41,352 bases of DNA from Actinomycetes bacterium (lineage in GTDB: Bacteria; Actinomycetota; Thermoleophilia; BMS3ABIN01). The DNA lies in NCBI GenBank assembly GCA_021790075.1, contig JAJYIN010000002.1, positions 1-41,352 on the forward strand. The letters are read 5' to 3'. Both the position numbers and the translations under genes were made by a program. Positions within the stretch are counted from its first letter, which is position 1, and each line of letters begins with the position of its first letter. The notes beneath the pieces were generated by a model. That model was not told the DNA's origin, did no database searches, and saw only the letters and a program-made list of their open reading frames with translations. Positions 4,505-20,222 of the stretch are shown piece after piece.

Positions 4505-5906
4505 CCCTGTCGCTGCCGCCGCTGCCGGCCATCTCTTCCCGGGGCCGTTCCGGTTCGCCCGCCCCGGACACTTCTTCCCGGGGAGGTTCCAGTTCATCGA
4601 CCCTGGACACTTCTTCCGTGGGCCGTGCCAGTTTCTTGTGGCCGTTCAGCTTGAACAGGCGGCGCATCGATTCCACATAAAGGTAGCCGCCGCGCTCGTT
4701 CGATGCCCGTTTCAGCTCCACCGTGGGACTGTGCAGGATCTTGTTGACGATACCCGACGCCATGGCCTCGATGCGGTTGCGGTCCTCCTCGGAGAGGTCG
4801 CCGTTGAACTTGCTGAGCGCTCTGGCCACCTCCGCCTCCTTGATCTCTTCCACCAGCTGCCGCAGAGCGGTGATGGTCGGCACCACATCCAGGCTGGAAA
4901 GCCACTGGGTGAAATTGAGCACTTCCTCGCCAATAATCTTTTCCGCCTTTTGTGCTTCCTTGCGGCGCGCTACCGCGTTGGCTTCGGCAACCTCGTTGAG
5001 ATCGTCGATGTCGTAGAGGAAGGCGTTGTAAACGTCGTTGACGCCGGGGTCGATATCACGGGGAACCGCGATGTCAATAAAGAAGATCGGCTTGTTGTGG
5101 CGCTGGCGCATGGCCTTTTCCACCTGGCCCTTGCGCAGCACGTAGTGAGGCGCGCCCGTGGAACTGATAACGATGTCCGCCAGGGGCAGGTAATCGGCAA
5201 GATCGTCGAAGCGGATGGCCTGGCCGTTGAACCTGTCCGCCATCTCTTCCGCCCGGCTGAACGTGCGGTTGCCCACCATGATGCTGGAGATGCCGTGCGA
5301 GAGCAGGTGGGTAGCGGTCAGCTCCCCCATCTTGCCGGCGCCCAGCAGCATGACGGTGCGGCCTTCCAGGTTGTCAAACACCTTTTTGGCCATCTCCACG
5401 GCTACCGACGACACCGACACGGGGTTCTCGCCGATGGCGGTTTCGGTGCGCACGCGCTTGCCCACTTCGAGGGAGTGGCGGAAAAGCCGGTTGAGGAGCA
5501 CGCTGGTGGTTTCACGGGCGTGGGCGTCGTGATAGGCCGCCTTGATCTGGCCCAGGATCTGGGCCTCGCCCACCACCAGGGAATCGAGGCTGCCGGCCAC
5601 CTTGTAAAGATGGCGGACGGCGCTCTCACCCTCGTAATAGTAAGAGCTGTCCTCCAGTTCTTCCCGGTCCACGCCGGCGAGGTGCGCCAGGGCAGCGAGC
5701 ACTTCGCGGTTGCCGGTTTCGGGGCGGGAGACAACCACGTAGATTTCGGTGCGGTTGCAGGTGGAAAGGGGAACGGCTTCCAGCACGCCGGCACTGTCCA
5801 GCAGTTTCTGGGAGAGAACCCCGCACTTCTCTCCATCAAGGGAAACCTTTTCCCGCAACTCCACGGGGGCGGTTTTATGATTTATGCCTAATACCGCGAG
5901 ATGCAT
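4497..5906 (-). CDS. hemA: Glutamyl-tRNA reductase with an unusual repetitive acidic C-terminal tail
   Basis: MHLAVLGINHKTAPVELRE, the STCNRTEIY active-site motif and the LLGAGKMGE NADPH site are all present. Confidence 0.92.
   Translation of the reverse strand: MHLAVLGINHKTAPVELREKVSLDGEKCGVLSQKLLDSAGVLEAVPLSTCNRTEIYVVVSRPETGNREVLAALAHLAGVDREELEDSSYYYEGESAVRHLYKVAGSLDSLVVGEAQILGQIKAAYHDAHARETTSVLLNRLFRHSLEVGKRVRTETAIGENPVSVSSVAVEMAKKVFDNLEGRTVMLLGAGKMGELTATHLLSHGISSIMVGNRTFSRAEEMADRFNGQAIRFDDLADYLPLADIVISSTGAPHYVLRKGQVEKAMRQRHNKPIFFIDIAVPRDIDPGVNDVYNAFLYDIDDLNEVAEANAVARRKEAQKAEKIIGEEVLNFTQWLSSLDVVPTITALRQLVEEIKEAEVARALSKFNGDLSEEDRNRIEAMASGIVNKILHSPTVELKRASNERGGYLYVESMRRLFKLNGHKKLARPTEEVSRVDELEPPREEVSGAGEPERPREEMAGSGGSDRDE
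4512..4628 (-). repeat. 3 x 39-bp in-frame tandem repeat encoding the HemA C-terminal tail
   Basis: The protein units are ARPTEEVSRVDEL / EPPREEVSGAGEP / ERPREEMAGSGGS. On the plus strand, CTTCC(C/G)(G/T)GGG recurs at about 4533, 4572 and 4611. Confidence 0.7.
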
Positions 5907-6514
5907 TTGTCGATCTCCGACTGCGCGGCGGCTTCGCCGCCGCTATGTAAAATTGCCGCCAGGTCCAGCTGCGCCAGTTCCGCCAGGCACTGCCGCTTGG
6001 CGTCCTCATCTTTCACCCGGGCTATCACCTGCCGGCGCGCTTCTCCCAGCAGTTCCAGCGCCCGGGCCCACTCCGGAGGAAACTCTTCTTCCAGCTGCCG
6101 GCGCAAACGTTTCGCCAGGGCCGGCAGCCCGCCGCCCGTGGAGACGGTCAGCATCAGATCGCCGCGGCGGACGGAGGCGGGAACATAAAAATTGCATTGC
6201 CCGGGCCGGTCGACCACGTTCAGCAGCAGCCCCCGGTCCTGAGCCTCTGACTCGACTTCCCGGTTGACCGCCTCGTCATCTGTGGCAGCAATGGCCAGAA
6301 AAGCCCCCTCGAGATCTCCCCGCCGGTAGGGCCTGTCCACATAGTCGAAGCGGCCTTGATGCCTTTCGAACTCAGGGTCAAGCACCGGCGACACCACCTT
6401 CACTTCAGCCCCGCATTCGAGCAGCGACTCCGCCTTGCGCAAAGCCACCTTACCGCCGCCGATTACGACGCAGGGGCGGCCTTCCAGCTTGAGATTGACA
6501 GGGTAAAGCGCCAC
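5888..6514 (-). CDS. Precorrin-2 dehydrogenase / sirohydrochlorin ferrochelatase (SirC / CysG N-terminal / Met8-like)
   Basis: It has the Rossmann motif VVIGGGKVALRKAESLLECGAEVKVVSP and is 208 aa long. It sits between resC and hemA. Confidence 0.85.
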   Translation of the reverse strand: MALYPVNLKLEGRPCVVIGGGKVALRKAESLLECGAEVKVVSPVLDPEFERHQGRFDYVDRPYRRGDLEGAFLAIAATDDEAVNREVESEAQDRGLLLNVVDRPGQCNFYVPASVRRGDLMLTVSTGGGLPALAKRLRRQLEEEFPPEWARALELLGEARRQVIARVKDEDAKRQCLAELAQLDLAAILHSGGEAAAQSEIDKCISRY

Positions 6515-6517: not shown

Positions 6518-7576
6518 TTATCCCACCGAGCCGTAACTGTGGAGCCCGGAAAGCAGCAGGTTGACTCCCAGGTAGGTGAATAGCACCACGACCATGCCGA
6601 TCACGGCCAGCACCGCGGAATGGCGGCCCCGCCATCCCCAGGTCAGCCGCGTATGCAGATAGGCGCCGTAGAAAAGCCAGGTGATGAACGACCAGGTTTC
6701 CTTGGGGTCCCAGCTCCACCAGCTGCCCCAGGCCTGGTCGGCCCAGATGGCGCCGGTGACGATACCGATGGTGACCATGGGGAAACCAAAGGCGATGCCG
6801 CGATAGCTGACCTCGTCCAGCACATCAAGTGAAGGCAGCCGCTTGGAAAATGAAGGCTTGGCGGCGCCCCGGCCGGCCAGGTATCCCAGCCCCAGAGCCA
6901 CTGTCAGCCCCAGGAGGCCGCCGGCCCCGATCTTGAGCCAGTCGCTGGTGGCGTAAATCTTGCTGACGGCGCCCGTTACCGGGTCGGCGATCTTGGCCGG
7001 ATTGGCCCAGGTGGAGCCCAGCCACAGCCCCAGCACCAGCCCCAGGAGGCCAAACATGATCAGGAATGCCATCACGACATTTTGATAGTGTTTTTTGAGC
7101 AGATATTCCTGGACGACATAGAAGAAGCCGGCGCCGAAAGACAGCGCAAAAAATCCGTAGGAAAGCATGGCGATGGAGACGTGGATCCAGAGCCAGTAAC
7201 TCTGAAGCGCCGGCACCAGCGGTTCGGGACCCGTGTAAAACACAAAGGCGACGCTGTTGATGATGAACGCCGTGGGCACCACCAGCGCCCCGGCGGCCCG
7301 GATGGGGTAAAACCGCTCGGCGATCAGATAGAAGAGCACGATGCCCCAGCCGAACACCGACAGCGATTCATACAGGTTCGACATGGGCGCGTGGCCCGAG
7401 CTGATCCAGCGCAGGACCAGCGCCACCGTGTGGGCCGTCAGGCCAAAGACCAGCAGGGCCGTGCCCAGCTTCGCGGTCATGGCATTGCGCGTGATCAGGT
7501 GCCAAATGTAAAGGCCGCTGCATACCAGGTACGAAATAACCGCAATAATGAAGAGTATCTCTTCTACCTTAGCCAT
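6518..7576 (-). CDS. ccsA: Cytochrome c biogenesis System II haem-handling protein (CcsA/ResC)
   Basis: It is polytopic, carries the WWD-type motif WGSWWSWDPKETWSFITW, and has conserved His residues. Confidence 0.88.
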   Translation of the reverse strand: MAKVEEILFIIAVISYLVCSGLYIWHLITRNAMTAKLGTALLVFGLTAHTVALVLRWISSGHAPMSNLYESLSVFGWGIVLFYLIAERFYPIRAAGALVVPTAFIINSVAFVFYTGPEPLVPALQSYWLWIHVSIAMLSYGFFALSFGAGFFYVVQEYLLKKHYQNVVMAFLIMFGLLGLVLGLWLGSTWANPAKIADPVTGAVSKIYATSDWLKIGAGGLLGLTVALGLGYLAGRGAAKPSFSKRLPSLDVLDEVSYRGIAFGFPMVTIGIVTGAIWADQAWGSWWSWDPKETWSFITWLFYGAYLHTRLTWGWRGRHSAVLAVIGMVVVLFTYLGVNLLLSGLHSYGSVG

Positions 7577-8720
7577 CTGCTCTTGCCTCCTGTCCCAGTC
7601 TCAACCTGAGTTCGGCAGTAATCCGCTCGAAATCGCGCTTGAATCCCAGCTTGGAGCGGTTGGTCCGCCCTCCCATCAAAAGCTCATCCGACTTGCCGAT
7701 TTTCAGCCAGATACGCCGGTGCGGGAAATACAGCCCGATCGTGATTCCCACCATCATCATCGCAAAACCCAGGTAGATCAGGGTCTTGCCGGGACGCCGG
7801 CTGATCTCGATCACGCTGACGTAACCGCGGCTTGACTGGTAATAACTCGATTGATAAAAATTCGTCCCCTCCACCTTGAGCAGGTCGAGAAAGGAAGACG
7901 TCAACCGCAACGGGCCGTTGACGGTGATCGTCTGCCGGACCACCTGCTGCCCCCCATCCAGGACCTGCAGGTCGGTGGAATAGAGGGATGGCCTGTAACT
8001 GACAATCCGGTTGCCGTCATAAACCGGATCGGATTTCATATTGAACCCGTAGCTCTTGAGCTGGTAATCCGTGTTGGGAACGTTGATGGTGGCGCCGTCC
8101 GGGACGTCGAGACGTTCCTGAAAACCAAAGACCGCGCCACTGATCGCTCCTATACAGATTACCAGAAAACTAAGATGAAACATTAGTGAGGAAAGACCGG
8201 AAAAGCGGCCCTTTTGCGCCAGCACCGAGCCGCTCTCACCTGCATGGAGCCGGTAACGCGAGCCCTTGAGCAGATCCCGGGCGGCCCCCATCCCCTTCTC
8301 GCCGGCCCCCTCGAAACTGGCGGCTTCCGGCTGGTTGGCCACAAAAGCGTCCTTGACGTCTAAACGCAGCTTAAAAGCATGCTTGACCGTGGTGGGAAGG
8401 CGGTTGAGGATGCAGACCGAAAGGTTCGCCATCAGCAGCGTCAGGAGGGACATGAACCACCAGGAAGTGTACATGTTGAAGAGGCCCAGGAAGTTGTAGA
8501 AATTGTACAGCGGGTTCTTGACCCAGTCCGACTGGAGGGCTTCCTCACCTTGGGGAATGATCGTGCCTATGATCGAGAGGATGGCAATGATGAACAGCAG
8601 CGTCAGCGCCAGCTTCATGGAGATGAGGAAATGGAAGATCCTCATCCCTAATGGAGGCGCCGGCTTTGACACCTCGGCTGTCTCGGATATGGCGCTCATT
8701 TCTTTGACGGAATCAGACAT
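7569..8720 (-). CDS. resB: Cytochrome c biogenesis System II protein (ResB/Ccs1/CcsB)
   Basis: The N-terminal FLISMKLALTLLFIIA helix, a large extracytoplasmic domain and a C-terminal TM segment match the family. It overlaps the resC start by 8 nt. Confidence 0.85.
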   Translation of the reverse strand: MSDSVKEMSAISETAEVSKPAPPLGMRIFHFLISMKLALTLLFIIAILSIIGTIIPQGEEALQSDWVKNPLYNFYNFLGLFNMYTSWWFMSLLTLLMANLSVCILNRLPTTVKHAFKLRLDVKDAFVANQPEAASFEGAGEKGMGAARDLLKGSRYRLHAGESGSVLAQKGRFSGLSSLMFHLSFLVICIGAISGAVFGFQERLDVPDGATINVPNTDYQLKSYGFNMKSDPVYDGNRIVSYRPSLYSTDLQVLDGGQQVVRQTITVNGPLRLTSSFLDLLKVEGTNFYQSSYYQSSRGYVSVIEISRRPGKTLIYLGFAMMMVGITIGLYFPHRRIWLKIGKSDELLMGGRTNRSKLGFKRDFERITAELRLRLGQEARADG

Positions 8721-8741: not shown

Positions 8742-9782
8742 CTAGGGTGCATCACCCTTGATAAAGGCTTTCTTGAAACTGGCAGCCTGTGACGGATCCG
8801 GCTGTGGCAGGGTGTCGGGCAGTTGCCATATTTGGATGCGGTTGTTCATCCGGTCGCAGATATAGAAACGTTTGGTGGAAGTTATTGCTATGCCGTCCGG
8901 AAAATTGACTTGGCCGTTCTGATCGCCCTTCTCCCCAAAAACGGATACCACGTCGCCGTCTTGGGTCAGGACGACAAACTGGTTGTTGAAATTGTCGGAT
9001 ACATAGACATTCCCGTCGGGTCCAAGCGCAATACCTTTCGGCAAACCGAAGGGACTGGTAATGTTGCCGTTGACATCGGGAGAACCCACCATCCAGCGAA
9101 CCTGCCCGCTGGAGTTGAGGGCGACGATGCGCCGGTTGAGTGAATCGGCCACGAAGAAATTGCCGGTATTGGGATCGACAACAATTCCTTCAGCGTAATT
9201 GAACTGGCCCTTATCCTTACCTTGCTTATCCGTGCCCCAGTGGCCTACATACTTGCCGTCGGCGTCAAAGATATATATGCCCGCCCAACTGGTCACATAT
9301 TCCTTGTCTCCGTAAATGGCAATTCCGTAAGGGGCAAACAGCTGACCGGCGGGGAAGTCCTTGGGGTCACGGGGAAGATTGAACTGGAAATCCCCGGCCT
9401 TGTTGAGAACCCGGACACCCCGGAAGTTGTAGTCGCATACGTACACGCGGTCCCGCGAGTCGTCAACGGCGATGTCGGCCATGTTGGCACGGAACTGGAG
9501 TGGATTCCCATCCTGGTCCTTGGTATCCACTTTAAATTGGAAATTGCCATCCTTGTCGTAAACATCAACTTCCGATTTGCCAGTGTTGCTAACATAGATG
9601 TTCTGGTCGACATCGGTGGCTACTCCAAAAGGAGCCAACACACCATAGATGGAAGTAATATAGCTGAAACCCCCGCTGATCGCCTGGGTCTGGGGAGTCT
9701 TGCGGGCAAGCAAAACCGCCACCAGTGCCAGCACGACTACCAGAACCCCCAGGACTATCAGCCTGCCTTTATACTTGCTCAT
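8742..9782 (-). CDS. Membrane-anchored NHL-repeat beta-propeller protein
   Basis: It has an N-terminal TM helix (LIVLGVLVVVLALVAVLLA). Repeated G.A.D..GN.YV.D..N.RV/I blocks (for example IYVSNTGKSEVDVYDKDG, VYVCDYNFRGVRVL, FFVADSLNRRIVAL, VYVSDNFNNQFVVL, FYICDRMNNRIQIW) follow. Confidence 0.85.
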   Translation of the reverse strand: MSKYKGRLIVLGVLVVVLALVAVLLARKTPQTQAISGGFSYITSIYGVLAPFGVATDVDQNIYVSNTGKSEVDVYDKDGNFQFKVDTKDQDGNPLQFRANMADIAVDDSRDRVYVCDYNFRGVRVLNKAGDFQFNLPRDPKDFPAGQLFAPYGIAIYGDKEYVTSWAGIYIFDADGKYVGHWGTDKQGKDKGQFNYAEGIVVDPNTGNFFVADSLNRRIVALNSSGQVRWMVGSPDVNGNITSPFGLPKGIALGPDGNVYVSDNFNNQFVVLTQDGDVVSVFGEKGDQNGQVNFPDGIAITSTKRFYICDRMNNRIQIWQLPDTLPQPDPSQAASFKKAFIKGDAP

Positions 9783-9816: not shown

Positions 9817-10419
9817 TCATGTTGATACCCGCTTGATCGCGTTCTGCAGATCCTGGTCGTTGGGGTTGAACTGAGCCGCCGCCTGGTATTCCTTCAGGGC
9901 GCCGGCCTTGTCCCCCTGCTGCTCGAGAATCTGCCCCATCAGGTAATGTGAAGTCCAGGTAATGTCACCGTCAGCAAACGACTTCTGCAGATCGCCCTTG
10001 GCGGCGTCGAGGCTGCCCCGGTTGAATTCCAGCTGCGCCATCTGGTAATAGGCTTCATACTTTTGACCACTGGAATAGGCGTCGGCAGCATGGGAAAACT
10101 GGTCTATGGCATTGTCGAGGTCACCTTTCTTCTCATAGGCCACGCCCATTTTCAGCAGGAGGATGGGCTGATTGGGCGCTTGTGAGAGGGCCGTCTGCAG
10201 TTCGCGGATGGCGTCGTCATACCGGCCGGCGTCCAGATAGGCGGCGCCGAGGTTCGCGCGCAAAGTCGGATCATCGGGTTTATCGTTAACAGCCTTCTCA
10301 AATTTTTCTATGTTGAGCTGGGTAGCTGTAGGAGCCGTGCCCGGCCGCAGGTAAAAGAACAGGGTAACGCCCAAAGCAATGACGGCGGCGGCGATGGCAA
10401 TGTTGATTATCTTGGACAA
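9817..10419 (-). CDS. Membrane-anchored TPR-repeat protein
   Basis: An N-terminal TM helix is followed by about 4 TPR units (LGAAYLDAGRYDDAIRELQTAL, MGVAYEKKGDLDNAIDQF, and others). A TTG start lies 6 nt after GAGGAG. Confidence 0.8.
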   Translation of the reverse strand: MSKIINIAIAAAVIALGVTLFFYLRPGTAPTATQLNIEKFEKAVNDKPDDPTLRANLGAAYLDAGRYDDAIRELQTALSQAPNQPILLLKMGVAYEKKGDLDNAIDQFSHAADAYSSGQKYEAYYQMAQLEFNRGSLDAAKGDLQKSFADGDITWTSHYLMGQILEQQGDKAGALKEYQAAAQFNPNDQDLQNAIKRVST

Positions 10420-10539
10420 GAAGTTCTCCTCAGAAATATCCGAAAAAGAAATGTTATGGGTTAACCGGCGAAGATGTTTGCGCCCCCGCTGTCCTGGCGG
10501 CTAGATTCATTATGCATCAACCTCATGGCGAAACCAAAT

Positions 10540-11079
10540 TTAACGCTCTTGGATCGGGGTTGTAGGGGTATTGGCATTACTGGGCAAGAAAATTCCCTGG
10601 ATTTTCCAGCGCCCTTCCTCCTCCACTAATGCCAGATCCAGTTTCACGTGATCTCCGGCCGGCTTGGAAAGCGCCTGGCCGGTGCTCGAGTCTACGTAAT
10701 AGCTGTTGTCGTCGAATTCCGCCACCACCTGGGCGATGGGGTAATTGTAGTCGTCCAGCCGCACCTGCAGGTTCTGGTAGTCACGCTTCTTGTATTTCCC
10801 CGCCGCCAGGTCCTGATTGATGGTGTTGGTGGCATCCTGAAGCGCGGTTCCCTTCATGGCCTGGGACAGAACGCTGGTGTCCTTGCCGGCGCTGGCAATC
10901 AGGTTCAGGTCGGCGGTAGCGTCGGCCACGACCTGGTCCTTGACCTGCTGGGATGGATCGTGCGCCGATGTCGCCGTGGTATCGACGGTATCGGGCTGGG
11001 TGCCTGAACCCCCGGAACCACACGATATAGCAACGAGAGCCAGAACGAGAACCAGAGGAACTGCTATAAACCGCATCAA
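10540..11079 (-). CDS. Lipoprotein of unknown function
   Basis: The signal peptide has a lipobox (LALVAISC-GSGGSG). The mature domain of about 155 aa ends in an NTF2/Tim44-like strand pattern (HVKLDLALVEEEGRWKIQG). Confidence 0.65.
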   Translation of the reverse strand: MMRFIAVPLVLVLALVAISCGSGGSGTQPDTVDTTATSAHDPSQQVKDQVVADATADLNLIASAGKDTSVLSQAMKGTALQDATNTINQDLAAGKYKKRDYQNLQVRLDDYNYPIAQVVAEFDDNSYYVDSSTGQALSKPAGDHVKLDLALVEEEGRWKIQGIFLPSNANTPTTPIQER

Positions 11080-11111
11080 CTTCGTTTTAATTCCTTATCT
11101 TTCCAATTTTT

Positions 11112-11138
11112 GGGGAGGCACCTCAAGGGTGCCTCCCC
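11112..11138 (-). terminator. Perfect 11-bp GC-rich hairpin 30 nt after the hexahaem cytochrome stop (I-shaped terminator or mRNA-stabilising stem)
   Basis: The sequence is GGGGAGGCACC-TCAAG-GGTGCCTCCCC. No U-tract follows on the minus strand, so its function as a terminator is uncertain. Confidence 0.5.
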
Positions 11139-11167
11139 ATATTCTACCTTCTACCAACCGGCCCGGA

Positions 11168-12280
11168 TTAGGGCAGTGAACCCTTGCTATGGCATCCAAT
11201 GCAGATGCCGTCACCATTGCTGGTGAGCAGATACGGGTTCGAACTCGTGTGCGGGAAGTCCAGAGAAGTCGGATCGTTACTCGGATTTCCGTGGCACGAA
11301 GCGCAGAACGGCGGGTGGTTCTGGTGAACCACGCCTGATGCATCCGCGGTCTTGTTGAGCACCTTCTGGTCGTGGCAGGCTTCGCAGAACCCTTCGAACG
11401 TCGTCACCGGCGTCGTCGTGTGGTTCGGCCGCGCGGACAGCAGGAAGTACGACTGCACTTTGGCGAACGCAGTCGTATTGATGAACTGCTGACCCCACGC
11501 GTTGTCCGGGATGTTGTCCGGACCCGCCGCGCCGGTCGCGTTGTTGACGGTGTCAGTGCCGTCGACAGAACCATGAGGTGTGTGGCAAGAAGCGCAGTAG
11601 AGGCCCTTGGTGCCATTGTAGGTAGTCGCGTTGCCGTTATTGTAACGAGGCATGCCGTTAGAGCCGGCCGCGTAGGCGCCGGGGAACTGGCCCGTGCCCA
11701 GGCCGCTGGCCATCACCACCAGCGGGTTGGTGCCGCTGGGGATGGCGTCAGTGACCCTCACCAGCGTGCCGTCGAGCATGACGCCCAGGCTGTGGCCTGG
11801 AATCGCGTCGATACTGGTGGTATTACCACTGATCGGCGCGCTCCGCATGTTCTTCTGGTAGGCGGCATAGGACGAGACCGTCGGCAGCTGCGGCTGGTTC
11901 GGGCTGTTGGGCTCGCCGTACGTGCCCGTCGGGCCCAGGATCGACTGGGTCAGATCAGGCGGCGCATCGGTCCAGCCGAAACGCATGGTGTTGGGAGCCG
12001 CCGGATTCTCCGGAATCGGCGCCTGATCGCCGAACAGGCCGTGGCAGGTACCGCAAGTACCGGTGACCGTAGCCTCGCGCGTCAACACGTAATCACCCTG
12101 TGCGTCGTGAGGCTCGTGACACTGCAGACACGTGTTGGTCGAAGAACTGTAACCACCGTGAGGGCTAATGTCGCCAGCGACGAGGGGACCGGCTGCGGTT
12201 TCGGCCATGGCTGAAGAGGCGAAAGCCAAGATCAGCACGACAGGGAGAGCAACCGCGACTATAAGCGCTATCCTTTTCAT
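11168..12280 (-). CDS. Secreted hexahaem c-type cytochrome with OmcS-like motif layout
   Basis: Six CxxCH motifs are present (CLQCH, CGTCH, CASCH, CEACH, CASCH, CIGCH). The Sec signal is MKRIALIVAVALPVVLILAFASSAMA|E. I chose the start at the ATG at 12280, 11 nt after AGGAGG; the track ORF extends to 12337 without an SD. Confidence 0.9.
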   Translation of the reverse strand: MKRIALIVAVALPVVLILAFASSAMAETAAGPLVAGDISPHGGYSSSTNTCLQCHEPHDAQGDYVLTREATVTGTCGTCHGLFGDQAPIPENPAAPNTMRFGWTDAPPDLTQSILGPTGTYGEPNSPNQPQLPTVSSYAAYQKNMRSAPISGNTTSIDAIPGHSLGVMLDGTLVRVTDAIPSGTNPLVVMASGLGTGQFPGAYAAGSNGMPRYNNGNATTYNGTKGLYCASCHTPHGSVDGTDTVNNATGAAGPDNIPDNAWGQQFINTTAFAKVQSYFLLSARPNHTTTPVTTFEGFCEACHDQKVLNKTADASGVVHQNHPPFCASCHGNPSNDPTSLDFPHTSSNPYLLTSNGDGICIGCHSKGSLP

Positions 12281-12312
12281 ATATGTAGACACCTCCTTTC
12301 GCCTTGGAATAA

Positions 12313-12350
12313 TTGTCATCTTTGTGAATAACATCACAAATAAATGACAA
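12313..12350. promoter_or_regulatory. CRP/FNR-family-type operator: a perfect TGTGA-N6-TCACA inside a 38-bp imperfect palindrome
   Basis: TGTGA lies at 12323-12327 and TCACA at 12334-12338. They are flanked by TTGTCAT (12313-12319) and ATGACAA (12344-12350). The site sits 43-58 nt upstream of the cytochrome start codon. Confidence 0.5.
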
Positions 12351-12578
12351 CACCTTGTCGTCCAGGCGCAATGGCGGGCCAGTCTATAACTGGTTCAACA
12401 AAGGCGCGGACGAAATGGCCAAACGAGGTTGCAGTTAGCCTGCTGCTGGATGGGACCTACCTATCCCATGTCGTGTGAGGACTTTCGTGGTGTTGTGGCA
12501 CTTTATCAACAATCCGCTTCCGCTCGAGTGTCCGCTTTTGTAACCGCTGAGACTGCAACGCATACTACCCTGGGTATG

Positions 12579-12607
12579 AAGATACAGGCTGATCAGGATT
12601 TTGTCAA
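12579..12607 (-). promoter_or_regulatory. Candidate sigma-70-type promoter for the cytochrome / accessory / resBC operon
   Basis: On the minus strand, TTGACA (12607-12602) is followed by a 17-nt spacer and TATCTT (12584-12579). This would give a leader of about 290 nt. Confidence 0.45.
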
Positions 12608-12925
12608 TAACCCCGGGGGGGTAATTAGGACTAAATCCGTTCAGTAACTTTTATCCTTCAGACCCCTATACCCAGTGTGAGCATTTACGGGAATGAATCG
12701 CGCAAGTTTGAGGATGCTCCGCAACTCATGCCAGTATAGCCTAAAAAGCCCGTACCAAAGCGGTTTTTCCTCAAATGGCAAAGAAAGGAAAAAGCGCAAC
12801 ATAAGACTCGCCGACCTCTGGTACTCTGCCAACCAGAAATTTTAGCCGTCCGGGGATGAATAAAATATCGGGGAATTCCCCTATACAGAAACGGCGGCAA
12901 AACACAACAGGTGAATCATTAGCAC

Positions 12926-13567
12926 TCAGCAGCGCGCCAGGTAGAGGATGTCTGTATAAGGACGCCGGGTCGGCATTTCCACCACGCTGGGCGCGAATCC
13001 CGCCCCCTCAAGCGCCTCAAGCGCCTGCCTGCGGCTGAGGAAACAGAGGCGCTCCCGCTTTCCCTGCGTCACTCCAATGCTCGTGGCCAGCAGTTCCTGA
13101 AAATGGGTCCAGGCGTATTTCCAGCGCGGCGAGGTCTCCTGCGCCTTCCAGACCAGCAACCCGCCCGGCTTCAATTTCTGCCTGCAAATATTCAATATTT
13201 CTTCCTGCTCCTGCCGAGGCAGCAGATACATGACGTCCACGATGGTGATGACGTCGCAGGGGGACAGATCCGCTGTCAGGATGTCGCCGCAGAGAAAACG
13301 GATGCCGTCCCTCTTCCCCACGGTGGCCTGGGCGTGCCCGATTTTTTCGCAGGAAAGGTCGATGCCGGTAACATGCCGGTGACGCGAATCCAGCGCCATC
13401 ATGTTGGCAAACAGGCCGTGCCCGCAGCCCAGGTCGAGGATGTCCCCGGCATCAGGCACGTGGCGCTCGACGAAGTCGAGGTCGCTCAGCAGCACACGCG
13501 TCCGCAGGAAGGCCCTGGTGGCCAGCGGCGCCGCCCGGTAGAGTTTGAGCGCTTCAGTTGCCTTCAA
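12926..13567 (-). CDS. Class I SAM-dependent methyltransferase
   Basis: Motif I is ILDLGCGHGLF, followed by an acidic loop GIDLS and motif LKPGGLLV. It overlaps the upstream gene by 14 nt. Confidence 0.8.
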   Translation of the reverse strand: MKATEALKLYRAAPLATRAFLRTRVLLSDLDFVERHVPDAGDILDLGCGHGLFANMMALDSRHRHVTGIDLSCEKIGHAQATVGKRDGIRFLCGDILTADLSPCDVITIVDVMYLLPRQEQEEILNICRQKLKPGGLLVWKAQETSPRWKYAWTHFQELLATSIGVTQGKRERLCFLSRRQALEALEGAGFAPSVVEMPTRRPYTDILYLARC

Positions 13568-15056
13568 GCGACACGCTCCTGGTCTTCCAGTCCACCATCA
13601 CCGAGTTCTGACCCGGCTGCCGGTCCATGAAGCGAAGCACCTGGTCCCAGGCCAGGGGCAGGTCTTTTTCCTGGCCGCCACCGGCAGGTTTCAAGTACCC
13701 TTCGAAAATGACCACATGCCTGATGGCGGGACCGAGCCCGATACTGACGGCATTCTCCTCGGTCGGATCGAAGCTGAGACTCTGATACTGCGGCAGATAG
13801 TATCTTACCTGCTGGTCATCGAAGACGGCGACGATAAGCGTGTCCGCGGGGTTGAACCCGGCTCTTATGGTATCCACGCGCGAGCGGAGGATCTCATCCC
13901 GCGCCGCCAGCTTGTTGGCGCTGAACTGCGGCGTGAAAACAAGAAAGAGCAGCAGGTTGCAGACGGTCAGGAGGCCGGCGGTCAGCATCAGGAATCTCTT
14001 CCTGGCGTCCGCGCGGCTGGTGGCAGCATCAGCAAGCCATGTCAACCCCCAGGCCGAGGCCAGCAGGGCCGCCGGCAGGAAGCTGAAAACGTACCCGAAC
14101 TCGCCAACGTGGACGAATGCATAAAAAAGGACGCTGGGGACGATCCAGACAGCCAGGAACCAGAACCGGCGGTCATGCAGAACCGGCCGCCATCGTTTCC
14201 GCGTGAGGCCGGCGATGAACCAGGCCATGAGCGGCAACGCCGCCGCCAGGGCCCAGGCCAGGAAAGTCCATAATGCCCTCAGGTTGGCGCCCAGCGCCCC
14301 GAGCCCGCCGCCCAGTACGGATGAAAAGCGCAGCAGGTAGTCGCTCTGGGCCGATGACGCTTGCTGGTAGGCGGTAAAGCCACCCGAGAGCAGTGCGGAG
14401 GGAACATACCACGCCAGAACGCCCGCCGCCAGCAGGGCGAGCGCGCCGGCGATCCTCCAGGCCGGTTTCCGGTACAGGCCAACCAGCAGAAGGGGAAACA
14501 GGAAAGGGAGCAGGTCCTGGCGGAAGCCGGAAGCAATGCCCAGCAGAAGGCCGGCCGGAAGCACATAGGCCTGATTCCCATCCCAGGTGCGGTAGATGAC
14601 GCCGGCGGTCACAATGCTGAGAAACGCCAGCAGCGTATAGGGATAGGCGACCTCGCTGTACGCCCAAAAGCTCAGGCTGGTAGCTAGTAACAATGCTGCG
14701 ATCAACCCTACTTCGCGGCCGAAAACGCTCCGCCCCAGCCAGTAGAGGGCGGCGGAGGCCGCGGCCGCGAAAAAGACGCTTACCCATACCAGGGCGGCGT
14801 TGGGGTCGCTGATGAACTGATGGACCAGCCAGACGGTGCCCACGTAAAAGATGTGCCCCGGAGGTTGCGGCTGCCCGCGGGTCACGTCGAAATGTTCGAT
14901 GGCCCTGGTGTAGAGCACCGAGTCCCACGCGTATAGCATGGTGGTGCGGAAAGGAATCCGCGATAGGAAAGTCGCGAGAAAAAGGGCTGTGGTTATCGGC
15001 CAGTCCGGCATGGCCCACGGCCGGCCAGGACCGGGGGGAGAAGAACCCGGCTTCAT
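13554..15056 (-). CDS. Polytopic GT-C-fold membrane glycosyltransferase-like protein (ArnT/PMT/DUF2723-like) with a C-terminal soluble domain
   Basis: It has about 11-12 hydrophobic helices. The first-loop motif YAWDSVLYTRAIEHF...PPGHIFYV resembles GT-C families. The ATG at 15056 overlaps the dihaem cytochrome stop as ATGA. Confidence 0.55.
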   Translation of the reverse strand: MKPGSSPPGPGRPWAMPDWPITTALFLATFLSRIPFRTTMLYAWDSVLYTRAIEHFDVTRGQPQPPGHIFYVGTVWLVHQFISDPNAALVWVSVFFAAAASAALYWLGRSVFGREVGLIAALLLATSLSFWAYSEVAYPYTLLAFLSIVTAGVIYRTWDGNQAYVLPAGLLLGIASGFRQDLLPFLFPLLLVGLYRKPAWRIAGALALLAAGVLAWYVPSALLSGGFTAYQQASSAQSDYLLRFSSVLGGGLGALGANLRALWTFLAWALAAALPLMAWFIAGLTRKRWRPVLHDRRFWFLAVWIVPSVLFYAFVHVGEFGYVFSFLPAALLASAWGLTWLADAATSRADARKRFLMLTAGLLTVCNLLLFLVFTPQFSANKLAARDEILRSRVDTIRAGFNPADTLIVAVFDDQQVRYYLPQYQSLSFDPTEENAVSIGLGPAIRHVVIFEGYLKPAGGGQEKDLPLAWDQVLRFMDRQPGQNSVMVDWKTRSVSLEGN

Positions 15057-15298
15057 CTGGTTTCCCCTGTGGCTGTCCCAGTGGTCTGCTGGACGGGGTG
15101 ACAGGAAGTGCAATCCGGTTTCCGGGGATGGTCGGTCTTCGGCGCTCCCTTGACACCCGCCTCATGGCAGCTGTCGCAATCCTTATAGACGCCGGCGCCG
15201 GGGTGGCCTGCCGGTGGCGGCGAAGAACCGGTGAGGGCGCAGGCCCAGGCCGAAAAAGCCAGCACCAGGACTGCCGCCACGATTAGAATTGTTTTCAA
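15053..15298 (-). CDS. Small membrane-anchored or lipoprotein dihaem c-type cytochrome
   Basis: The 81-aa product has an N-terminal hydrophobic segment (ILIVAAVLVLAFSAWAC) and two CxxCH motifs (CDSCH, CTSCH). A TTG start lies 6 nt after GGGGAGGGG. Confidence 0.75.
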   Translation of the reverse strand: MKTILIVAAVLVLAFSAWACALTGSSPPPAGHPGAGVYKDCDSCHEAGVKGAPKTDHPRKPDCTSCHPVQQTTGTATGETR

Positions 15299-15339: not shown

Positions 15340-15819
15340 CTATTCGATGAAATACTTCATGCTGATCTTTTTGAACTCACGGCTGCTGAACAGGAGCTCA
15401 TACGCGGCGATGCCGACCTGCTGTGACAGCTCCGCCGCCATCCGGCGGCAATCTTCTTCGGATGCGCCGTGGATCATGGCAAAGAGATTGTAATCCCATT
15501 TGTCCGCCCGGGGGCGCTGGTAGCAGTGGCTGACCTCGTCGGCCGCGGCCAGGATTGCTCCGACTTCTTCGGCCCTCGCGTCCGGCACGTCCCACGCGCT
15601 CATGGCATTGGCTGTATAACCCAGCCGCTGGTGGCGCACCATGGCGCCGAAACGGCGGATGGTGCCGTCCTGCTTCCATTCCTGTACCTTTGCCACCACT
15701 TCCGCAGGTTCCATGCCTGCCTGGGCCGCGATCTCGGCAAACGGCTCGGGCGTGACCGGAATTGTTTCCTGCAGCAGACGGATCAGTTCCTGCTCTTTTT
15801 CGGAGAATATTCTATCCAT
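15340..15819 (-). CDS. Siroheme decarboxylase subunit (AhbA/AhbB, NirD/L/G/H family, Lrp/AsnC-like)
   Basis: The 159-aa product has an N-terminal wHTH (EQELIRLLQE) and a C-terminal NirD-like domain (RRFGAMVRHQRLGY.ANAMSAW). It is paired with a paralogue and overlaps it by 8 nt. Confidence 0.85.
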   Translation of the reverse strand: MDRIFSEKEQELIRLLQETIPVTPEPFAEIAAQAGMEPAEVVAKVQEWKQDGTIRRFGAMVRHQRLGYTANAMSAWDVPDARAEEVGAILAAADEVSHCYQRPRADKWDYNLFAMIHGASEEDCRRMAAELSQQVGIAAYELLFSSREFKKISMKYFIE

Positions 15820-16273
15820 CGATCACCGGCAGGTCGACCTGTATCTTGAACAGCCGCGAGGCAGGCAGGTTGATGACCGGGCCGATGCCGGCGTCGGCTT
15901 CGATCTCCCCGATGATCTCTTCAATCCGCGCCCGGCTGGGAGCGATGAGCGTGAACCAGACGTTGTAATGGTGGTTGCGCTCATAGTTGTGGGTGACATT
16001 ATGGAAGCGGTTGATCGCGGCAATGGCGGCGTCCAGTTTTTCCGGAGGCACGTGCACGGCGCAAAGGGTGCTCGTATAACCCACCTTGCGGGAATCAAAG
16101 GAAGCGCCCAGGCGCCTGATCTCACCGGACTCCATGATCGCGTTGATGCGGTCGATGACCTCCTGCTCCGGAATGCCCAGTTTCTCGCCGACGGCGGCGT
16201 AAGGGCGTTCCTCGATGGGGAAATCCGCCTGGATCAGGGTTATGAGCTTTTTGTCGGTTCCATCCATATGCAT
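15812..16273 (-). CDS. Siroheme decarboxylase subunit (AhbA/AhbB family), second paralogue
   Basis: The 153-aa product carries DKKLITLIQADFPIEERPY and IRRLGASFDSRKVGYTSTLCA motifs. Confidence 0.85.
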   Translation of the reverse strand: MHMDGTDKKLITLIQADFPIEERPYAAVGEKLGIPEQEVIDRINAIMESGEIRRLGASFDSRKVGYTSTLCAVHVPPEKLDAAIAAINRFHNVTHNYERNHHYNVWFTLIAPSRARIEEIIGEIEADAGIGPVINLPASRLFKIQVDLPVIDG

Positions 16274-16276: not shown

Positions 16277-17458
16277 CTAACGAGGGCCGGCGGGAGGCAT
16301 TTTCCTCCTGGCTTTCGGCTCGTAAACACAGAAAGGCTCCTCCCCCAGATAATCCCCGGTCACCTCATAGGCCCGGGCCCGGCAGCCGCCGCAGTAGCGG
16401 CGGTACTCGCAGTAGCCGCAGCGTCCATGGTAACCGTCCAGGTCACGCATCTCCCTGAAAACGGGAGAGTCGCGCCAGACATCACCAAAACTCTGTTCCT
16501 TGAGGCTGCCGCAGTTTACATCCAGGAAACCACAGATCTGGACCACGCCCTGGTATGAGATGAAGCAGAAACCCTGCCCACCCAGGCATCCCTTGCTCAT
16601 GGCGTCCATGCCGTGCGTCTCCACCGTCACCTTCTTGCCTTCGGCGTGGGCGCGCTGGCGGAGGATGCGGTAGTAATGCGGCGCGCAGGTGGGCTTGAAG
16701 TTGAGCGGCACCGTTTCCCGCTGGTCGTAGACCCAGCCCAGCGTCTCCTCGTACTGCTCGGGGGAAAGCTCCTGGTCGGCCAGTTCCTTGCCGCGGCCGG
16801 TCGGCACCAGCAGGAATGGATGGAAGGCGACCGCGCCCAGGTCGATGGCCAGCCGCAGGATGTCCGGCAGCTCGGCCAGGTTGACTTTGGTCACGGTTGT
16901 ATTAATCTGGAACTCGATGCCTGCCTTCCTGGCGGCCTCGATGCCTCTCATCACCTCGTCGAAAGCCCCGGGCACGCGGCGGAAATCGTCATGCGTCTGC
17001 GCCGTGGCGCCATCGACGCTCAAACTGATGCGGTCGATGCCGGATTCCTTGAGGCGGCGGGCATTTTCATCACTCAGGAGGGTGCCACAGGGGGACATCA
17101 CCATTTTCAGTCCCCTGTCGGTGCCGTAACGGGCTATCTCGTAGATGTTTTCCCTCAGCATGGGATCGCCGCCGGTGAGGATGACGATAGGCTTCCCGAC
17201 CGCGGCGATCTCGTCGATCACCTGGAAGCATTTCTCGGTCGAAAGTTCACCGGGGTACGGGCCCTTGTCGGCAGCGGCGCGGCAATGGCGGCAGGAAAGA
17301 TTGCAGCTGCGCGTCACCTCCCAGGCAACCAGCCGCGGCGCGGGCGGACCGCCGGGCTTGCCGCCCGGATGCCCGTGAGGCTGGCCGCCTGCACGCCCGT
17401 GTGGATGGCCGCCGGGATGACCCTGATGTTTGCCGGCGAGCCTAGCCAATCTCCTCAT
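16277..17458 (-). CDS. ahbD: Radical SAM/SPASM haem-pathway enzyme, NirJ2/AhbD-like (haem synthase). Start uncertain, possibly up to 17530
   Basis: It has the CNLSCRHC radical-SAM cluster motif and a C-terminal Cys-rich auxiliary-cluster region (CGYCEYRRYCGGCRARA). It is adjacent to AhbA/B and AhbC. The AhbC versus AhbD assignment is tentative. Confidence 0.7.
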   Translation of the reverse strand: MRRLARLAGKHQGHPGGHPHGRAGGQPHGHPGGKPGGPPAPRLVAWEVTRSCNLSCRHCRAAADKGPYPGELSTEKCFQVIDEIAAVGKPIVILTGGDPMLRENIYEIARYGTDRGLKMVMSPCGTLLSDENARRLKESGIDRISLSVDGATAQTHDDFRRVPGAFDEVMRGIEAARKAGIEFQINTTVTKVNLAELPDILRLAIDLGAVAFHPFLLVPTGRGKELADQELSPEQYEETLGWVYDQRETVPLNFKPTCAPHYYRILRQRAHAEGKKVTVETHGMDAMSKGCLGGQGFCFISYQGVVQICGFLDVNCGSLKEQSFGDVWRDSPVFREMRDLDGYHGRCGYCEYRRYCGGCRARAYEVTGDYLGEEPFCVYEPKARRKMPPAGPR

Positions 17459-18641
17459 CCGTGAGATAGCAGGCCGGGTCGGGGGCCCAGGGATCGCCAT
17501 AAACCAGGTCGGCGCGCACGCGCAGGGCACCGCCGCAGGCGTCGAACCATTTGCAGGAGCGGCAGCGGCCGTGGATATGGCCGCGCCGGTCCTTGAGCCC
17601 CGCCATCAGCGGGTCGGAAGTGTCCATCCAGATCTCGCTGAAGGGGCGCTCGCGCACGTTGCCGAAGCTGTAGTGCATCCAGAACTGGTCCGGGTGCACG
17701 TTTCCCTTGAAGTCGATGTCACCGAAGCCGACGCCCGAGCTGTAGAGGCCGCCGCCATTCCATTTCAGCAGCCGCATGACCGCCTCGGCCCGCTCCGGGG
17801 CCTCTTCCAGTAACTTCATGTAAAGGTAGATGCCGTCGACGTGGTTGTCCACGGTGAGGATATCCTTTTCCAGGCCGCGGTCATGCATGTCCCGGGTGCG
17901 GGTCAGGATGATGTCGAGGGCATCCCGGGTTTCAGCGTGGGTGAGGTCGTCGCTCTCCTTGCCCCGGCCCGAATAAACGAGGTGATAAAAGCAGGCGCGG
18001 TCGATCTCCTCCGCCTCGATGAAGTCGAAGATGCGGTGCAGGTCGGTGTAATTGTGGCGGGTCAGGGTCAGCCTGAGGCCCACCCGCTGCCCCACCGCCT
18101 TGCAGTTGCGGAAGCCGGCCATCGCCTTCTCAAAGGCTCCCTTGTGGCCCCGGAAAGCATCGTTGATGTCGCCGATGCCGTCCAGGCTGATGCCCACGTA
18201 GGTGAAGCCGAGGTCCTTGATCCGCTGGGCCACGTCGCGGGTGATCAGGGTGCCGTTGGTAGAGAGCGTCGGCCGGATGCCCAGCGAGACGGCGTGCCCG
18301 GCCAGTTCGAAGAGGTCCTTGCGCATCAGCGGCTCGCCGCCGGAGAAGAGCAGCGCCGGGATCTGAAACCGGGCCAGGTCCTCGATGAGCGTCTTGCCCT
18401 CCTCGGTGCTGAGTTCGCCCTCGTATTTCCTGGCCTCGGAATCGGTATAGCAGTGCACGCATTTCAGGTTACAGGTGCGGCTGGTGTTCCAGGCCACCAC
18501 CGGGCGCCGCTCCGAGGCCGACTTGGGGTTGCGGGGAATGTAGGGCGCCCCCTGCATCTCCTTGCCCTTGTGGCCGTGACCATACCGCAACGAGTCGGCG
18601 GGAGTGTCCCGGTCGCAGTAGAGTCGGGTGATATCGATCAT
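17442..18641 (-). CDS. ahbC: Radical SAM/SPASM haem-pathway enzyme, NirJ1/AhbC-like (Fe-coproporphyrin III synthase)
   Basis: It begins MIDITRLYCDRDTPADSLRYGHG, carries a CNLKCVHC cluster motif, and has a C-terminal CRSCKWFDACGG motif. Confidence 0.7.
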   Translation of the reverse strand: MIDITRLYCDRDTPADSLRYGHGHKGKEMQGAPYIPRNPKSASERRPVVAWNTSRTCNLKCVHCYTDSEARKYEGELSTEEGKTLIEDLARFQIPALLFSGGEPLMRKDLFELAGHAVSLGIRPTLSTNGTLITRDVAQRIKDLGFTYVGISLDGIGDINDAFRGHKGAFEKAMAGFRNCKAVGQRVGLRLTLTRHNYTDLHRIFDFIEAEEIDRACFYHLVYSGRGKESDDLTHAETRDALDIILTRTRDMHDRGLEKDILTVDNHVDGIYLYMKLLEEAPERAEAVMRLLKWNGGGLYSSGVGFGDIDFKGNVHPDQFWMHYSFGNVRERPFSEIWMDTSDPLMAGLKDRRGHIHGRCRSCKWFDACGGALRVRADLVYGDPWAPDPACYLTDEEIG

Positions 18642-18674: not shown

Positions 18675-20222
18675 TCAGGCGCCGGCGTCGCCGGTCAGCG
18701 CCTTGACCAGCCCCGGGATTGTGTACTCATCCGCCACGATGTCAACCTTCAGGCCCAGCTCCCGGGCCGTATCGGCGGTGACGGGGCCGATGCATGCAAT
18801 CGTCACACTCGCGGGCAAAAGAGAGAAGTCGAAACCGTCGAGGAGCGCTACGAAGTTTTTGACTGTGGATGAGCTTGTAAAAGTAATGATATCAATTTCA
18901 CCGGCGCTGAGCATATGTTTCATGTCACTTGCGCCCGCGTCATCGAGCATGGTTTCGTAGGCGGTGACAACCTCCACCCGGGCGCCGGCCCCTGCCAGTT
19001 TCTCGGGCAACACTTCGCGGGCCTCCCTGGCCCTGGGGATCAGCACGCGGCTGCCTTTCACGCCCAGATCGAGCAGCCCCTCGACCACCGATTCAGCCCG
19101 GTACTCGGGCGGCACGAAATCAGGTTTGAGCCCCCGGGCCTCGAGAGCCGCCGCCGTCGCCGGGCCGATCGCCCCCAGCCTGACGCCCTTGAGGGCGCGC
19201 ACGTCACCAATCCTCTCCAGGCGGGCGAAGAAGTGGTCTACGCCGTTGACGCTGGTAAAGACGATCCACTCGTAAGCAGGTTCAGCGACGGCAACGACCT
19301 TTTCCACGGCCGCGTCCAACGCCGCGTAGCCGTCAGCGGGGGGCGCCACCCGGATGGTGGGAAACTCCACCGGCACGGCTCCCGCCTGCCTCAGCGCCTC
19401 CACCAGATCGCTGGCCTGCGCCCGCGAGCGGGTGACCACTACCTTCCTGCCGAACAGGGGCCTGTCCTCGAACCAGTGCAGCTGCTCCCGCAGGGATACA
19501 ACCTCGCCGACGATGGTGATGGCGGGCGCCTTGAACCGGCGCTCTTTGACCAGCTCGACGATGTTCGACAGGGTGCCGGTAAGGGTTTCCTGCCGCTCCG
19601 TGGTCCCCCACCGGATCAGAGCTACCGGCGTTTCCGGGGAACGGCCGTTGGCCACCAGGTTCTCGACGATATAGGGAAGATTCCTGACGCCCATCAGGAA
19701 GACCAGGGTGCCGACACCGGTGGAGATCCGGTCCCACTTGATGGTGGACTCGGCCTTGGCAGGATCCTCATGGCCGGTGATGAAGGCCACGTCCGTGGTG
19801 AGGCCGCGGTGGGTCACCGGAATACCCGCGTAGGCAGGCACCGCGTATGCCGAGGAAATACCAGGCACCACCTCGAAATCAACGCCTGCCTCCCTCAGCG
19901 CCAGGGCTTCCTCACCACCACGGCCGAAGATGAAGGAATCGCCGCCCTTGAGCCGCGTTACCACCTTCCCGGCCGACCCCAGCTCCGCCAGCAGCCGGTT
20001 GATGTCCTCCTGCTGCATGGTATGGTTGCCGCCCTTCTTCCCCACATAGATGAGCTCCACGTCCGGGCGGGCATGCGCCAGCAGCTCCTTGCTGGCAAGG
20101 TAGTCATAAACGATGGTGTCGGCTTCGCGGACGCACCGGACCCCCTTGAGGGTGAACAGGCCCGGGTCGCCAGGGCCGGCGCCAACCAGGTAAACCTTTC
20201 CCTTTAAATCGCCTGCTGTCAT
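18675..20222 (-). CDS. Fused uroporphyrinogen-III C-methyltransferase / uroporphyrinogen-III synthase (CobA-HemD)
   Basis: The N-terminal half carries VYLVGAGPGDPGLFTLKG and the SUMT core. The C-terminal half of about 250 aa is HemD-like (VVVTRSRAQASDL...FTSSSTVKNF). Confidence 0.9.
   Translation of the reverse strand: MTAGDLKGKVYLVGAGPGDPGLFTLKGVRCVREADTIVYDYLASKELLAHARPDVELIYVGKKGGNHTMQQEDINRLLAELGSAGKVVTRLKGGDSFIFGRGGEEALALREAGVDFEVVPGISSAYAVPAYAGIPVTHRGLTTDVAFITGHEDPAKAESTIKWDRISTGVGTLVFLMGVRNLPYIVENLVANGRSPETPVALIRWGTTERQETLTGTLSNIVELVKERRFKAPAITIVGEVVSLREQLHWFEDRPLFGRKVVVTRSRAQASDLVEALRQAGAVPVEFPTIRVAPPADGYAALDAAVEKVVAVAEPAYEWIVFTSVNGVDHFFARLERIGDVRALKGVRLGAIGPATAAALEARGLKPDFVPPEYRAESVVEGLLDLGVKGSRVLIPRAREAREVLPEKLAGAGARVEVVTAYETMLDDAGASDMKHMLSAGEIDIITFTSSSTVKNFVALLDGFDFSLLPASVTIACIGPVTADTARELGLKVDIVADEYTIPGLVKALTGDAGA

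Follow-up and report, generated by a model that had tools for sequence, protein, structure and literature searches.

The stretch of DNA analysed here (the window) comprises positions 1 to 41,352 of contig JAJYIN010000002.1 from an Actinomycetes bacterium (assembly GCA_021790075.1), and it contains a minus-strand gene for a hexahaem c-type cytochrome precursor of 370 amino acids plus a stop codon (11168..12280), identified from the open reading frame (ORF), Pfam/NCBIfam matches, homologues and a residue census. The ORF starts at an ATG at 12280 and ends with the stop codon at 11168-11170. A strong ribosome-binding site (AAGGAGG, 12292..12298) lies 8 nt 5' of this ATG, and the alternative GTG start at 12337 given in the ORF list is unnecessary. 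By eye, residues 1-26 (12203..12280) read as a Sec signal peptide, MKRIALIVAVALPVVLILAFASSAMA|ET, with recognizable n-, h- and AXA c-regions, cleavage after AMA and no lipobox, and AlphaFold2 (AF2) predicted a helix across residues 2-26. The census gave a mature chain of 344 residues, rich in G/T/P/A/S/N, in which all 12 Cys fall within CxxCH motifs starting at residues 51, 76, 229, 299, 326 and 360; there are 14 His in total. Only about 0.02 CxxCH motifs would be expected in a shuffled chain of the same composition (3.5% C, 4.1% H), so the six observed are not due to chance. An initial annotation, made from the letters alone, had listed a Sec signal peptide, six CxxCH motifs, about 14 His, about 345 mature residues, a G/T/N/P/S-rich chain and a spacing of only ~20 residues between haem motifs 4 and 5, and all of these readings proved accurate. 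By its motifs and domain matches, the gene encodes a Sec-secreted six-haem cytochrome made of three tandem paired-CXXCH di-haem modules. The sequence contains no membrane or wall anchor of its own.

The comparisons below draw on four alignments: A1 (68 family sequences), A2 (the OmcS family), A3 (108 family members) and A4 (15 distant relatives). All six haem motifs are invariant in A1, and each could be placed from the alignment and the census, with BLASTP in addition for motif 3. Motif 1 (C51LQCH55, 12116..12130) is preceded by H41 and followed by the invariant H58, which gives it the CxxCHxxH form that had been noted at the outset. Motif 2 (C76GTCH80) lies at 12041..12055, and motif 3 (C229ASCH233, 11582..11596) is followed by the invariant H236 (CASCHTPHG). 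An invariant P285-N286-H287 precedes motif 4 (C299EACH303, 11372..11386), motif 5 (C326ASCH330, 11291..11305) has an invariant N321-H322-P323 before it and D341-F-P-H344 after it, and motif 6 (C360IGCH364) lies at 11189..11203. Of the 14 His, 13 are conserved in at least 97% of the 68 homologues. Seven of these are outside the motifs: H58, H163, H236, H287, H322 and H344 at 100%, and H41 at 97%. Because these His are conserved and no Met is conserved in A1, all six haems are probably bis-His ligated; a conserved candidate sixth His ligand is available for every one of them.

This ligation pattern bears on whether the protein might act as a multihaem enzyme, such as a reductase that has an open haem site. 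Multihaem scaffolds are catalytic in NrfA, HAO and MccA, and MccA did appear as a very weak PDB match of the family profile (E 0.04). We consider a catalytic role highly improbable: the cytochrome has no CxxCK, CxnCH or other atypical haem motif, the candidate sixth His is conserved at all six haems, and Pfam, NCBIfam and PDB searches revealed no similarity to catalytic families.

Domain searches identified the cytochrome as a clear member of Paired_CXXCH_1 (PF09699; 59.3 bits against a cutoff of 20.6) and TIGR01905 (59.3 bits, cutoff 25.2), with four matched stretches spanning its three di-haem modules. These models define a domain rather than a functional family. Beyond PF09699, the relatives of the cytochrome add a fixed three-module layout, GH, PNH, NHP and DFPH motifs, a Leu-Pro C-terminus and a gene partnership with a tetratricopeptide repeat (TPR) protein and an NHL propeller. 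A search of 5.8 billion proteins returned 277 relatives of 270-430 residues, the named ones being from Thermoleophilia/Actinobacteria metagenome-assembled genomes (MAGs), including one 'bacterium BMS3Abin01', and an exhaustive profile search retrieved 94, 677 and 2387 representatives at E<=1e-30, 1e-10 and 1e-3, respectively. A scan of GTDB species genomes, which used one peptide pattern and so under-samples the family, found 27 loci, 26 in Actinomycetota-type MAGs and one in an Acidobacteria MAG, with none in a cultured organism. The initial annotation had judged the host to be monoderm-like, in agreement with relatives that come almost entirely from Actinomycetota MAGs. On these profile and distribution data, the cytochrome belongs to a distinct, uncharacterised family that is nearly confined to uncultured Actinomycetota MAGs. 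The more distant A4 proteins (400-540 residues, 7-8 haems, also ending in Leu-Pro) are homologous to A1 over their full length (E 7e-38).

The family alignments revealed a near-invariant C-terminal tail. Leu369-Pro370 (11171..11176) are the final two residues, as they are in 104 of 108 aligned members and in 15 of 15 A4 relatives, and this ending is kept even where an extension of ~30 residues comes after haem 6. TPR domains often bind C-terminal peptides, and the Leu-Pro tail may therefore, by analogy, be a recognition tag for the TPR partner. Variation is seen at the other end of the protein. In three MAGs (L021, L022 and L025) the hexahaem domain forms the C-terminal end of a protein of ~1370 residues that has an N-terminal membrane anchor, a NosD-type beta-helix and ~10 Big_13 Ig-like repeats, with the junction ~8 residues before the PHGGY motif; the fusion gene adjoins a free paralogue of 510-520 residues and lipoprotein, TPR and NHL genes. 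A Coriobacteriaceae-labelled MAG (L024 99-803) encodes two extra CxxCH motifs just before PHGGY, giving 8 haems, in an ORF that ends at the contig edge, and the A4 group has one or two haems added at the N-terminal end.

The cytochrome gene lies in a minus-strand operon. Directly downstream is a probable lipoprotein of 179 residues (..LVAISC GSG; 10540..11079) with a weak ARC6-like IMS match and synteny in ~20 loci. It is followed by a TPR protein of 200 residues with an N-terminal membrane anchor and weak similarity to the CcmH/CycH TPR domain (9817..10419; E 1.6e-4, below the cutoff), which was also placed by synteny, and by a six-bladed NHL beta-propeller of 346 residues, again with an N-terminal membrane anchor (8742..9782; domain match and synteny). 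Next come the two subunits of a System II cytochrome c maturation apparatus: the CcsB-type synthase subunit ResB (7569..8720; PF05140, 2e-74) and the haem-handling subunit CcsA/ResC (6518..7576; PF01578, 3e-54; TIGR03144, 287 bits). Domain matches assign the last three genes to haem synthesis, as a precorrin-2 dehydrogenase-like gene (5888..6514), HemA (4497..5906) and HemC (3536..4597). The cytochrome itself has the features of a System II substrate, namely a Sec signal, CxxCH motifs and co-encoded ResB and CcsA.

This arrangement is conserved. The gene order is identical in a 712-kb contig of an Actinobacteria MAG, and tblastn over 31 related loci (the 27 genome loci plus L003-L006) detected the full cluster in ~10 genome loci and linkage of the cytochrome to the TPR and NHL genes in ~20 loci. 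The TPR-NHL pairing recurs in operons of unrelated kinds, in the window (8742-10419) and in L003, L005, L006, L021, L022, L025, L033 and L035. The pair also accompanies the family member in the Acidobacteria MAG, and on a separate contig it adjoins a distant 7-8-haem member of the A4 group. Most close relatives have an extra pentahaem cytochrome (~273 residues, ending ..HNxxxY) between the lipoprotein and TPR genes (L003 11646-12467), a position that in the window (10420-10539) is just a 121-bp gap.

Upstream of the cytochrome, also on the minus strand, domain matches identified an S-adenosylmethionine (SAM) methyltransferase (12926..13567; there in ~11 related loci) and a PMT_2-type GT-C glycosyltransferase (13554..15113; ~17 related loci). 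The Thr/Ser/Pro-rich loops of the cytochrome could be sites of O-glycosylation. The intergenic region between the methyltransferase and the cytochrome (12281-12925) is unusually long at 645 bp; an Rfam search of it gave no match at E<=1, and counts of promoter and terminator patterns over 10300-13100 were at chance level. Domain searches of the minus strand beyond the glycosyltransferase revealed AhbA/B-like genes (15340..16273) and two radical-SAM enzymes (16277..18641) of sirohaem-dependent haem synthesis, followed by CobA-HemD (18675..20222). Together, 15340-20222 encodes a complete-looking sirohaem-dependent (alternative) haem pathway that forms one supra-operon with cytochrome c maturation; such pathways are typically found in sulfate reducers and archaea. 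An anaerobic lifestyle is suggested by the predicted products of three genes at 25798-29123, all of the 2-hydroxyacyl-CoA dehydratase / BcrAD-BadFG activase type (two DUF2229/HGD-D genes and the ATPase). At 32619-34757, next to mfd, are two tandem SurA_N + PPIC-type prolyl isomerases (PrsA-like), and a SurA_N protein lies within the cytochrome cluster of the relative locus L006. The OmcS system employs a peptidyl-prolyl isomerase chaperone, OscH.

Gene neighbourhoods elsewhere in the family suggest a second possible role, that of a dedicated electron-transfer partner (an NrfB-, c3- or c7-like role) docking on one extracytoplasmic oxidoreductase or quinol-oxidizing complex. The gene for family member P0064 heads an operon that also encodes a molybdopterin oxidoreductase together with its chaperone and FeS subunits, and the TPR-NHL pair is present there; P0087 is accompanied by the TPR-NHL pair, other multihaem cytochromes and an adjacent Rieske/cytochrome b complex. 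Sulfate reducers use periplasmic multihaem hubs. The relatives include members of BMS3Abin01, an uncultured order of Thermoleophilia for which sulfate reduction is predicted (PMC13503563). The cytochrome also has weak, above-cutoff Pfam matches to Cytochrome_C7 (33.2 bits, cutoff 24.8), NrfB-like (32.4, cutoff 27) and c3_2 (27.8, cutoff 25). Against this role, each of these matches covers only 33-69 residues, and the NCBIfam equivalog models for NrfB and TmcA score the cytochrome far below their cutoffs. At 42-57 residues per haem (57 in the cytochrome itself), it is far larger than c3 or c7 carriers; c3/c7/NrfB-like carriers have about 25-35. The window and ~10 close relatives have no adjacent oxidoreductase gene and carry general haem-synthesis and maturation genes instead, and the stalk-fused forms suggest surface display. 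We therefore regard such a dedicated partner as distinctly unlikely.

The initial annotation had proposed that the protein may be a compact OmcS-family cytochrome that polymerizes. Applied to a monoderm cell, this would be a head-to-tail, OmcS-like polymer forming a haem wire through the thick wall, with His58 or the surplus His ligating a haem of the next subunit and with the TPR, NHL and lipoprotein products as assembly and anchoring machinery. Several observations favour a polymer. OmcS (GSU2504; PDB 6EF8/6NEF) is, like the cytochrome, secreted, loop-rich and PF09699-bearing, with six CxxCH motifs that in both proteins are probably all bis-His ligated. Both have three modules of the H...CxxCHxxH...CxxCH type in the same order, with haem 1 close to the start of the mature chain and haem 6 at its very end, and the cytochrome fits the OmcS family in size and motif count (~400 residues, secreted, six CxxCH; the mature chain has 344). 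The mature OmcS sequence used for comparison is identical to 6EF8_A. The A1 profile returned the filament formers OmcS (8e-9) and OmcE (7e-7) as its first and second PDB matches, with an OmcE-like chain third (1e-4). In hhalign, A1 matched A2 with a probability of 98.4%. A greedy hhalign comparison with signal peptides removed aligned the two end to end and in register, haems 1-6 on haems 1-6 (probability 96.8%, score 80.9), and paired GH with GH and NHP with HP of OmcS. Five of the six spare His of OmcS (H2, H16, H110, H147, H257 and H335) are matched in order by those of the cytochrome (H41, H58, H163, H236, (H287), H322 and H344), which has seven conserved spare His for six haems. A polymer would also suit a cytochrome with no anchor of its own, the stalk-fused haem domain of the three MAGs would require a conductive bridge across its long non-conductive stalk, and there is a precedent in CwcA, which was modelled on OmcS at 18% identity (PMC7911101).

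The specificity of this likeness was examined at several levels. BLASTP of the cytochrome against OmcS gave motif-length matches only, the best being LYCASCHTPHG/LHCSSCHDPHG (E 0.002), and phmmer of the cytochrome against PDB gave no match. A local panel of 83 multihaem ORFs was drawn from all the loci retrieved; in it, the OmcS-family hidden Markov model (HMM) scored 10.4 bits for the window protein and 4-18 for its relatives, none of them significant. The A1 HMM gave 37.7 bits for OmcS, 17.1 for OmcT and 18-19 for OscC in the same panel, and 39-47 bits, at or above OmcS, for unrelated 9-11-haem actinobacterial and acidobacterial cytochromes. A 6x6 matrix of haem-module profiles for the cytochrome against OmcS had no dominant diagonal; haem 1 of the cytochrome, for example, scored 38.1 against OmcS haem 3 and 23.9 against OmcS haem 1. 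Finally, hhalign was run on all 24 arrangements of OmcS blocks 3-6, with blocks 1-2 left in place. Against A1 the arrangements scored between 42 and 101, with the native OmcS order (80.9) in 7-8th place of 24; against A4 they scored between 61 and 121, with the native order (105.4) in 5th place of 24. The panel, matrix and permutations indicate that the high hhalign probabilities come from the shared di-haem module and not from a shared six-haem architecture, and we rejected the profile-PDB value of 8e-9 and the hhalign values of 96-98% as OmcS-specific evidence. The A4 group, which resembles OmcS in a long insert before haem 5, was likewise rejected as a bridge to OmcS, since it is linked through a 35-column core only and the OmcS HMM gives no detection.

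Among the motifs that had been paired with OmcS, those at haems 1, 3, 4 and 6 and the GH and NHP motifs are conserved features of the family. The pairing of MRFGWTD with GDFGW did not hold up: the segment is insertion-prone and poorly conserved, its Met column is filled in just one of the 68 sequences, its Trp alone shows moderate conservation, and hhalign leaves it unaligned to GDFGW. Similarly, the OmcS-like architecture stands as far as the number and order of motifs and spare His are concerned, and does not extend to OmcS-specific similarity (HMM, panel, matrix and permutation). Membership of the OmcS family, the larger claim, fails because alignment beyond the generic CxxCH motifs was not significant, which was the standard that the initial annotation had set for it. 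As judged from these comparisons, the cytochrome is not a demonstrable OmcS-family member, and its likeness to OmcS is no greater than its likeness to other cytochromes with the same module.

The two proteins also differ in other respects. The NHP His lies ~4 residues from haem 5 in the cytochrome and ~70 in OmcS; the cytochrome has the extra conserved His287; its His344 is 14 residues past the haem 5 motif His330, where OmcS has the His of a CxxCHxxH; and the chain ends in LP rather than AKD. The host is an Actinomycetota-type MAG, whereas that of OmcS is a diderm member of the Desulfuromonadia. In OmcS, the second His of the haem-1 CxxCHxxH ligates haem 5 of the next subunit. The CxxCHxxH form, which we take to be part of the generic PF09699/TIGR01905 consensus, occurs at haems 1 and 3 of the cytochrome and at haems 1, 3 and 5 of OmcS. 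Because it is generic and recurs on other haems, His58 provides no evidence for an inter-subunit ligand. AF2 models were obtained for the window protein (predicted local distance difference test (pLDDT) 64) and for the 278-residue member P0024 (pLDDT 80, predicted TM-score 0.74; 108 sequences). Foldseek found no PDB match for either at E<=10, including 6EF8 and 7TFS, with models that are haem-free and a loop-rich fold that is poorly suited to this method.

The surrounding genes differ as well. The Geobacter omcS locus encodes OmcT, a 1017-residue spermine-synthase-like protein, OscC, a YncE-type propeller, a 718-residue protein and an LpoB-like protein, and the osc companion cluster (OscB-K) and its roles are summarized in PMC13194489 and PMC12977616. 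In place of osc genes the window carries the lipoprotein, TPR, NHL and ResB/CcsA genes, and we found no homologues of OmcT, OscB or OscC within it. BLASTP of the NHL propeller against OscD, the one osc companion compared in this way, was not significant. Upstream of Geobacter omcS (L001 493-3921) are genes for a PMT_2-TPR glycosyltransferase, a GT2 and a methyltransferase. BLASTP of the PMT_2 protein and methyltransferase of the window against these namesakes showed no specific similarity, and we put this Pfam-level parallel down to coincidence and rejected the idea of machinery shared with the Geobacter locus.

Two further observations tell against an OmcS-like polymer. First, relatives extend the haem-1 end covalently, by extra haems (L024 and A4) or by a large domain that joins ~8 residues before PHGGY, which is more in keeping with a modular wire than with an obligate homopolymer. 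Second, P0064 heads a molybdoenzyme operon, resembling an ordinary redox partner. Polymerization of the cytochrome is possible and drew no support from any specific test; taking both sides together, we consider an OmcS-like wire unlikely.

We favour, at a rough probability of 55%, a reading in which the cytochrome, from a distinct family of uncultured anaerobic Actinomycetota, conducts electrons in the wall zone through six bis-His haems and is served by dedicated partners for maturation or docking. The apocytochrome would be exported via Sec and held for haem attachment by the TPR protein, acting as an apocytochrome chaperone analogous to CcmI and NrfG, possibly through the C-terminal Leu-Pro. 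ResB and CcsA would load the six haems, and the lipoprotein and NHL propeller would retain or organize the holocytochrome on the outer side of the membrane or within the wall zone. By relaying electrons, the resulting linear haem chain could link redox complexes of the membrane with extracytoplasmic enzymes or with external acceptors. Several points weigh against this reading. The family is known from metagenomes alone and the roles proposed for it rest on sequence; those of the TPR, NHL and lipoprotein products and of the Leu-Pro tail come from gene neighbourhood and analogy, and the CcmH/CycH match of the TPR protein is weak. No gene for a membrane electron donor is encoded within the window. 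The seven conserved non-motif His are one more than intramolecular bis-His ligation of six haems needs, and OmcS has six. A monoderm cell would lose an unanchored secreted cytochrome that was neither bound nor polymerized, which leaves room for a polymer.

One form of polymer would owe nothing to OmcS or the osc genes: a wall-crossing monoderm cytochrome polymer assembled or docked by the membrane-anchored TPR and NHL products and the lipoprotein, with the TPR protein reading the Leu-Pro end and, in some lineages, a membrane-tethered subunit on a stalk of ~10 Ig-like domains starting or capping the polymer. We think this improbable. If true, Actinomycetota would gain their first defined nanowire-type system, with biogenesis machinery of its own. 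Electron transfer across the thick monoderm wall is poorly understood, and the only wire proposed for it, CwcA, is a homology model. Uncultured subsurface Actinomycetota carry a conserved, TPR/NHL-linked hexahaem cytochrome co-encoded with haem-synthesis and cytochrome-maturation genes. If the cytochrome-TPR-NHL trio is a maturation or assembly unit, it would offer a small, testable gene set for expressing and localizing such cytochromes and would suggest an explanation for the long-noted, so far unexplained pairing of NHL-repeat proteins with multihaem cytochromes. The analysis also carries a methodological point. Likeness in motif order, even with hhalign probabilities of 97-98%, can arise from a shared di-haem module alone, and module-shuffling controls are therefore needed for multihaem cytochromes.

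Comparison with known systems helps to place the family. A term search of a 2026 review of cytochrome nanowires (PMC12954529) returned no mention of Actinobacteria or Firmicutes. OmcE (PDB 7TFS) and OmcE-like tetrahaem filaments (9YUQ) share CxxCHTPH- and CxxCHD-type motifs with the family. OmcE has four haems against six in the cytochrome, and its match is permuted, with family haems 3-4 on OmcE haems 1-2 and family haems 1-2 on OmcE haems 3-4; given this order, the likeness is at the level of the module and not of the architecture. The closest precedent for the proposal in the initial annotation is CwcA of Thermincola (TherJR_1122 / Tfer_0075), the hexahaem 'cell-wall cytochrome' of a monoderm, for which a polymer spanning the wall has been proposed. 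An OmcS-like hexahaem polymer in a monoderm is thus an idea already in the literature (PMC7911101), and the polymerization of CwcA is itself a homology model only. The C-terminus of CwcA, deduced from a published reverse primer rather than the full sequence, is ..YADVAG, as opposed to ..LP in the cytochrome, and no Thermincola locus was among those found by the single-pattern GTDB scan. What is new here, on the alignment and synteny data, is the uncharacterised family, its conserved accessory gene set and its near-invariant C-terminal tail. The accessory set has a likeness, by gene description, in the Uet cluster of 'Ca. Tenderia electrophaga' (bioRxiv 10.1101/2022.05.06.490989), which comprises multihaem cytochromes, NHL-repeat proteins, CcsA/CcsB and an NrfG-like TPR protein and so resembles the cytochrome/NHL/CcsA-CcsB/TPR set of the window; it differs in belonging to a Gram-negative electroautotroph, in having tri-, tetra- and undecahaem cytochromes and in including an outer-membrane barrel.

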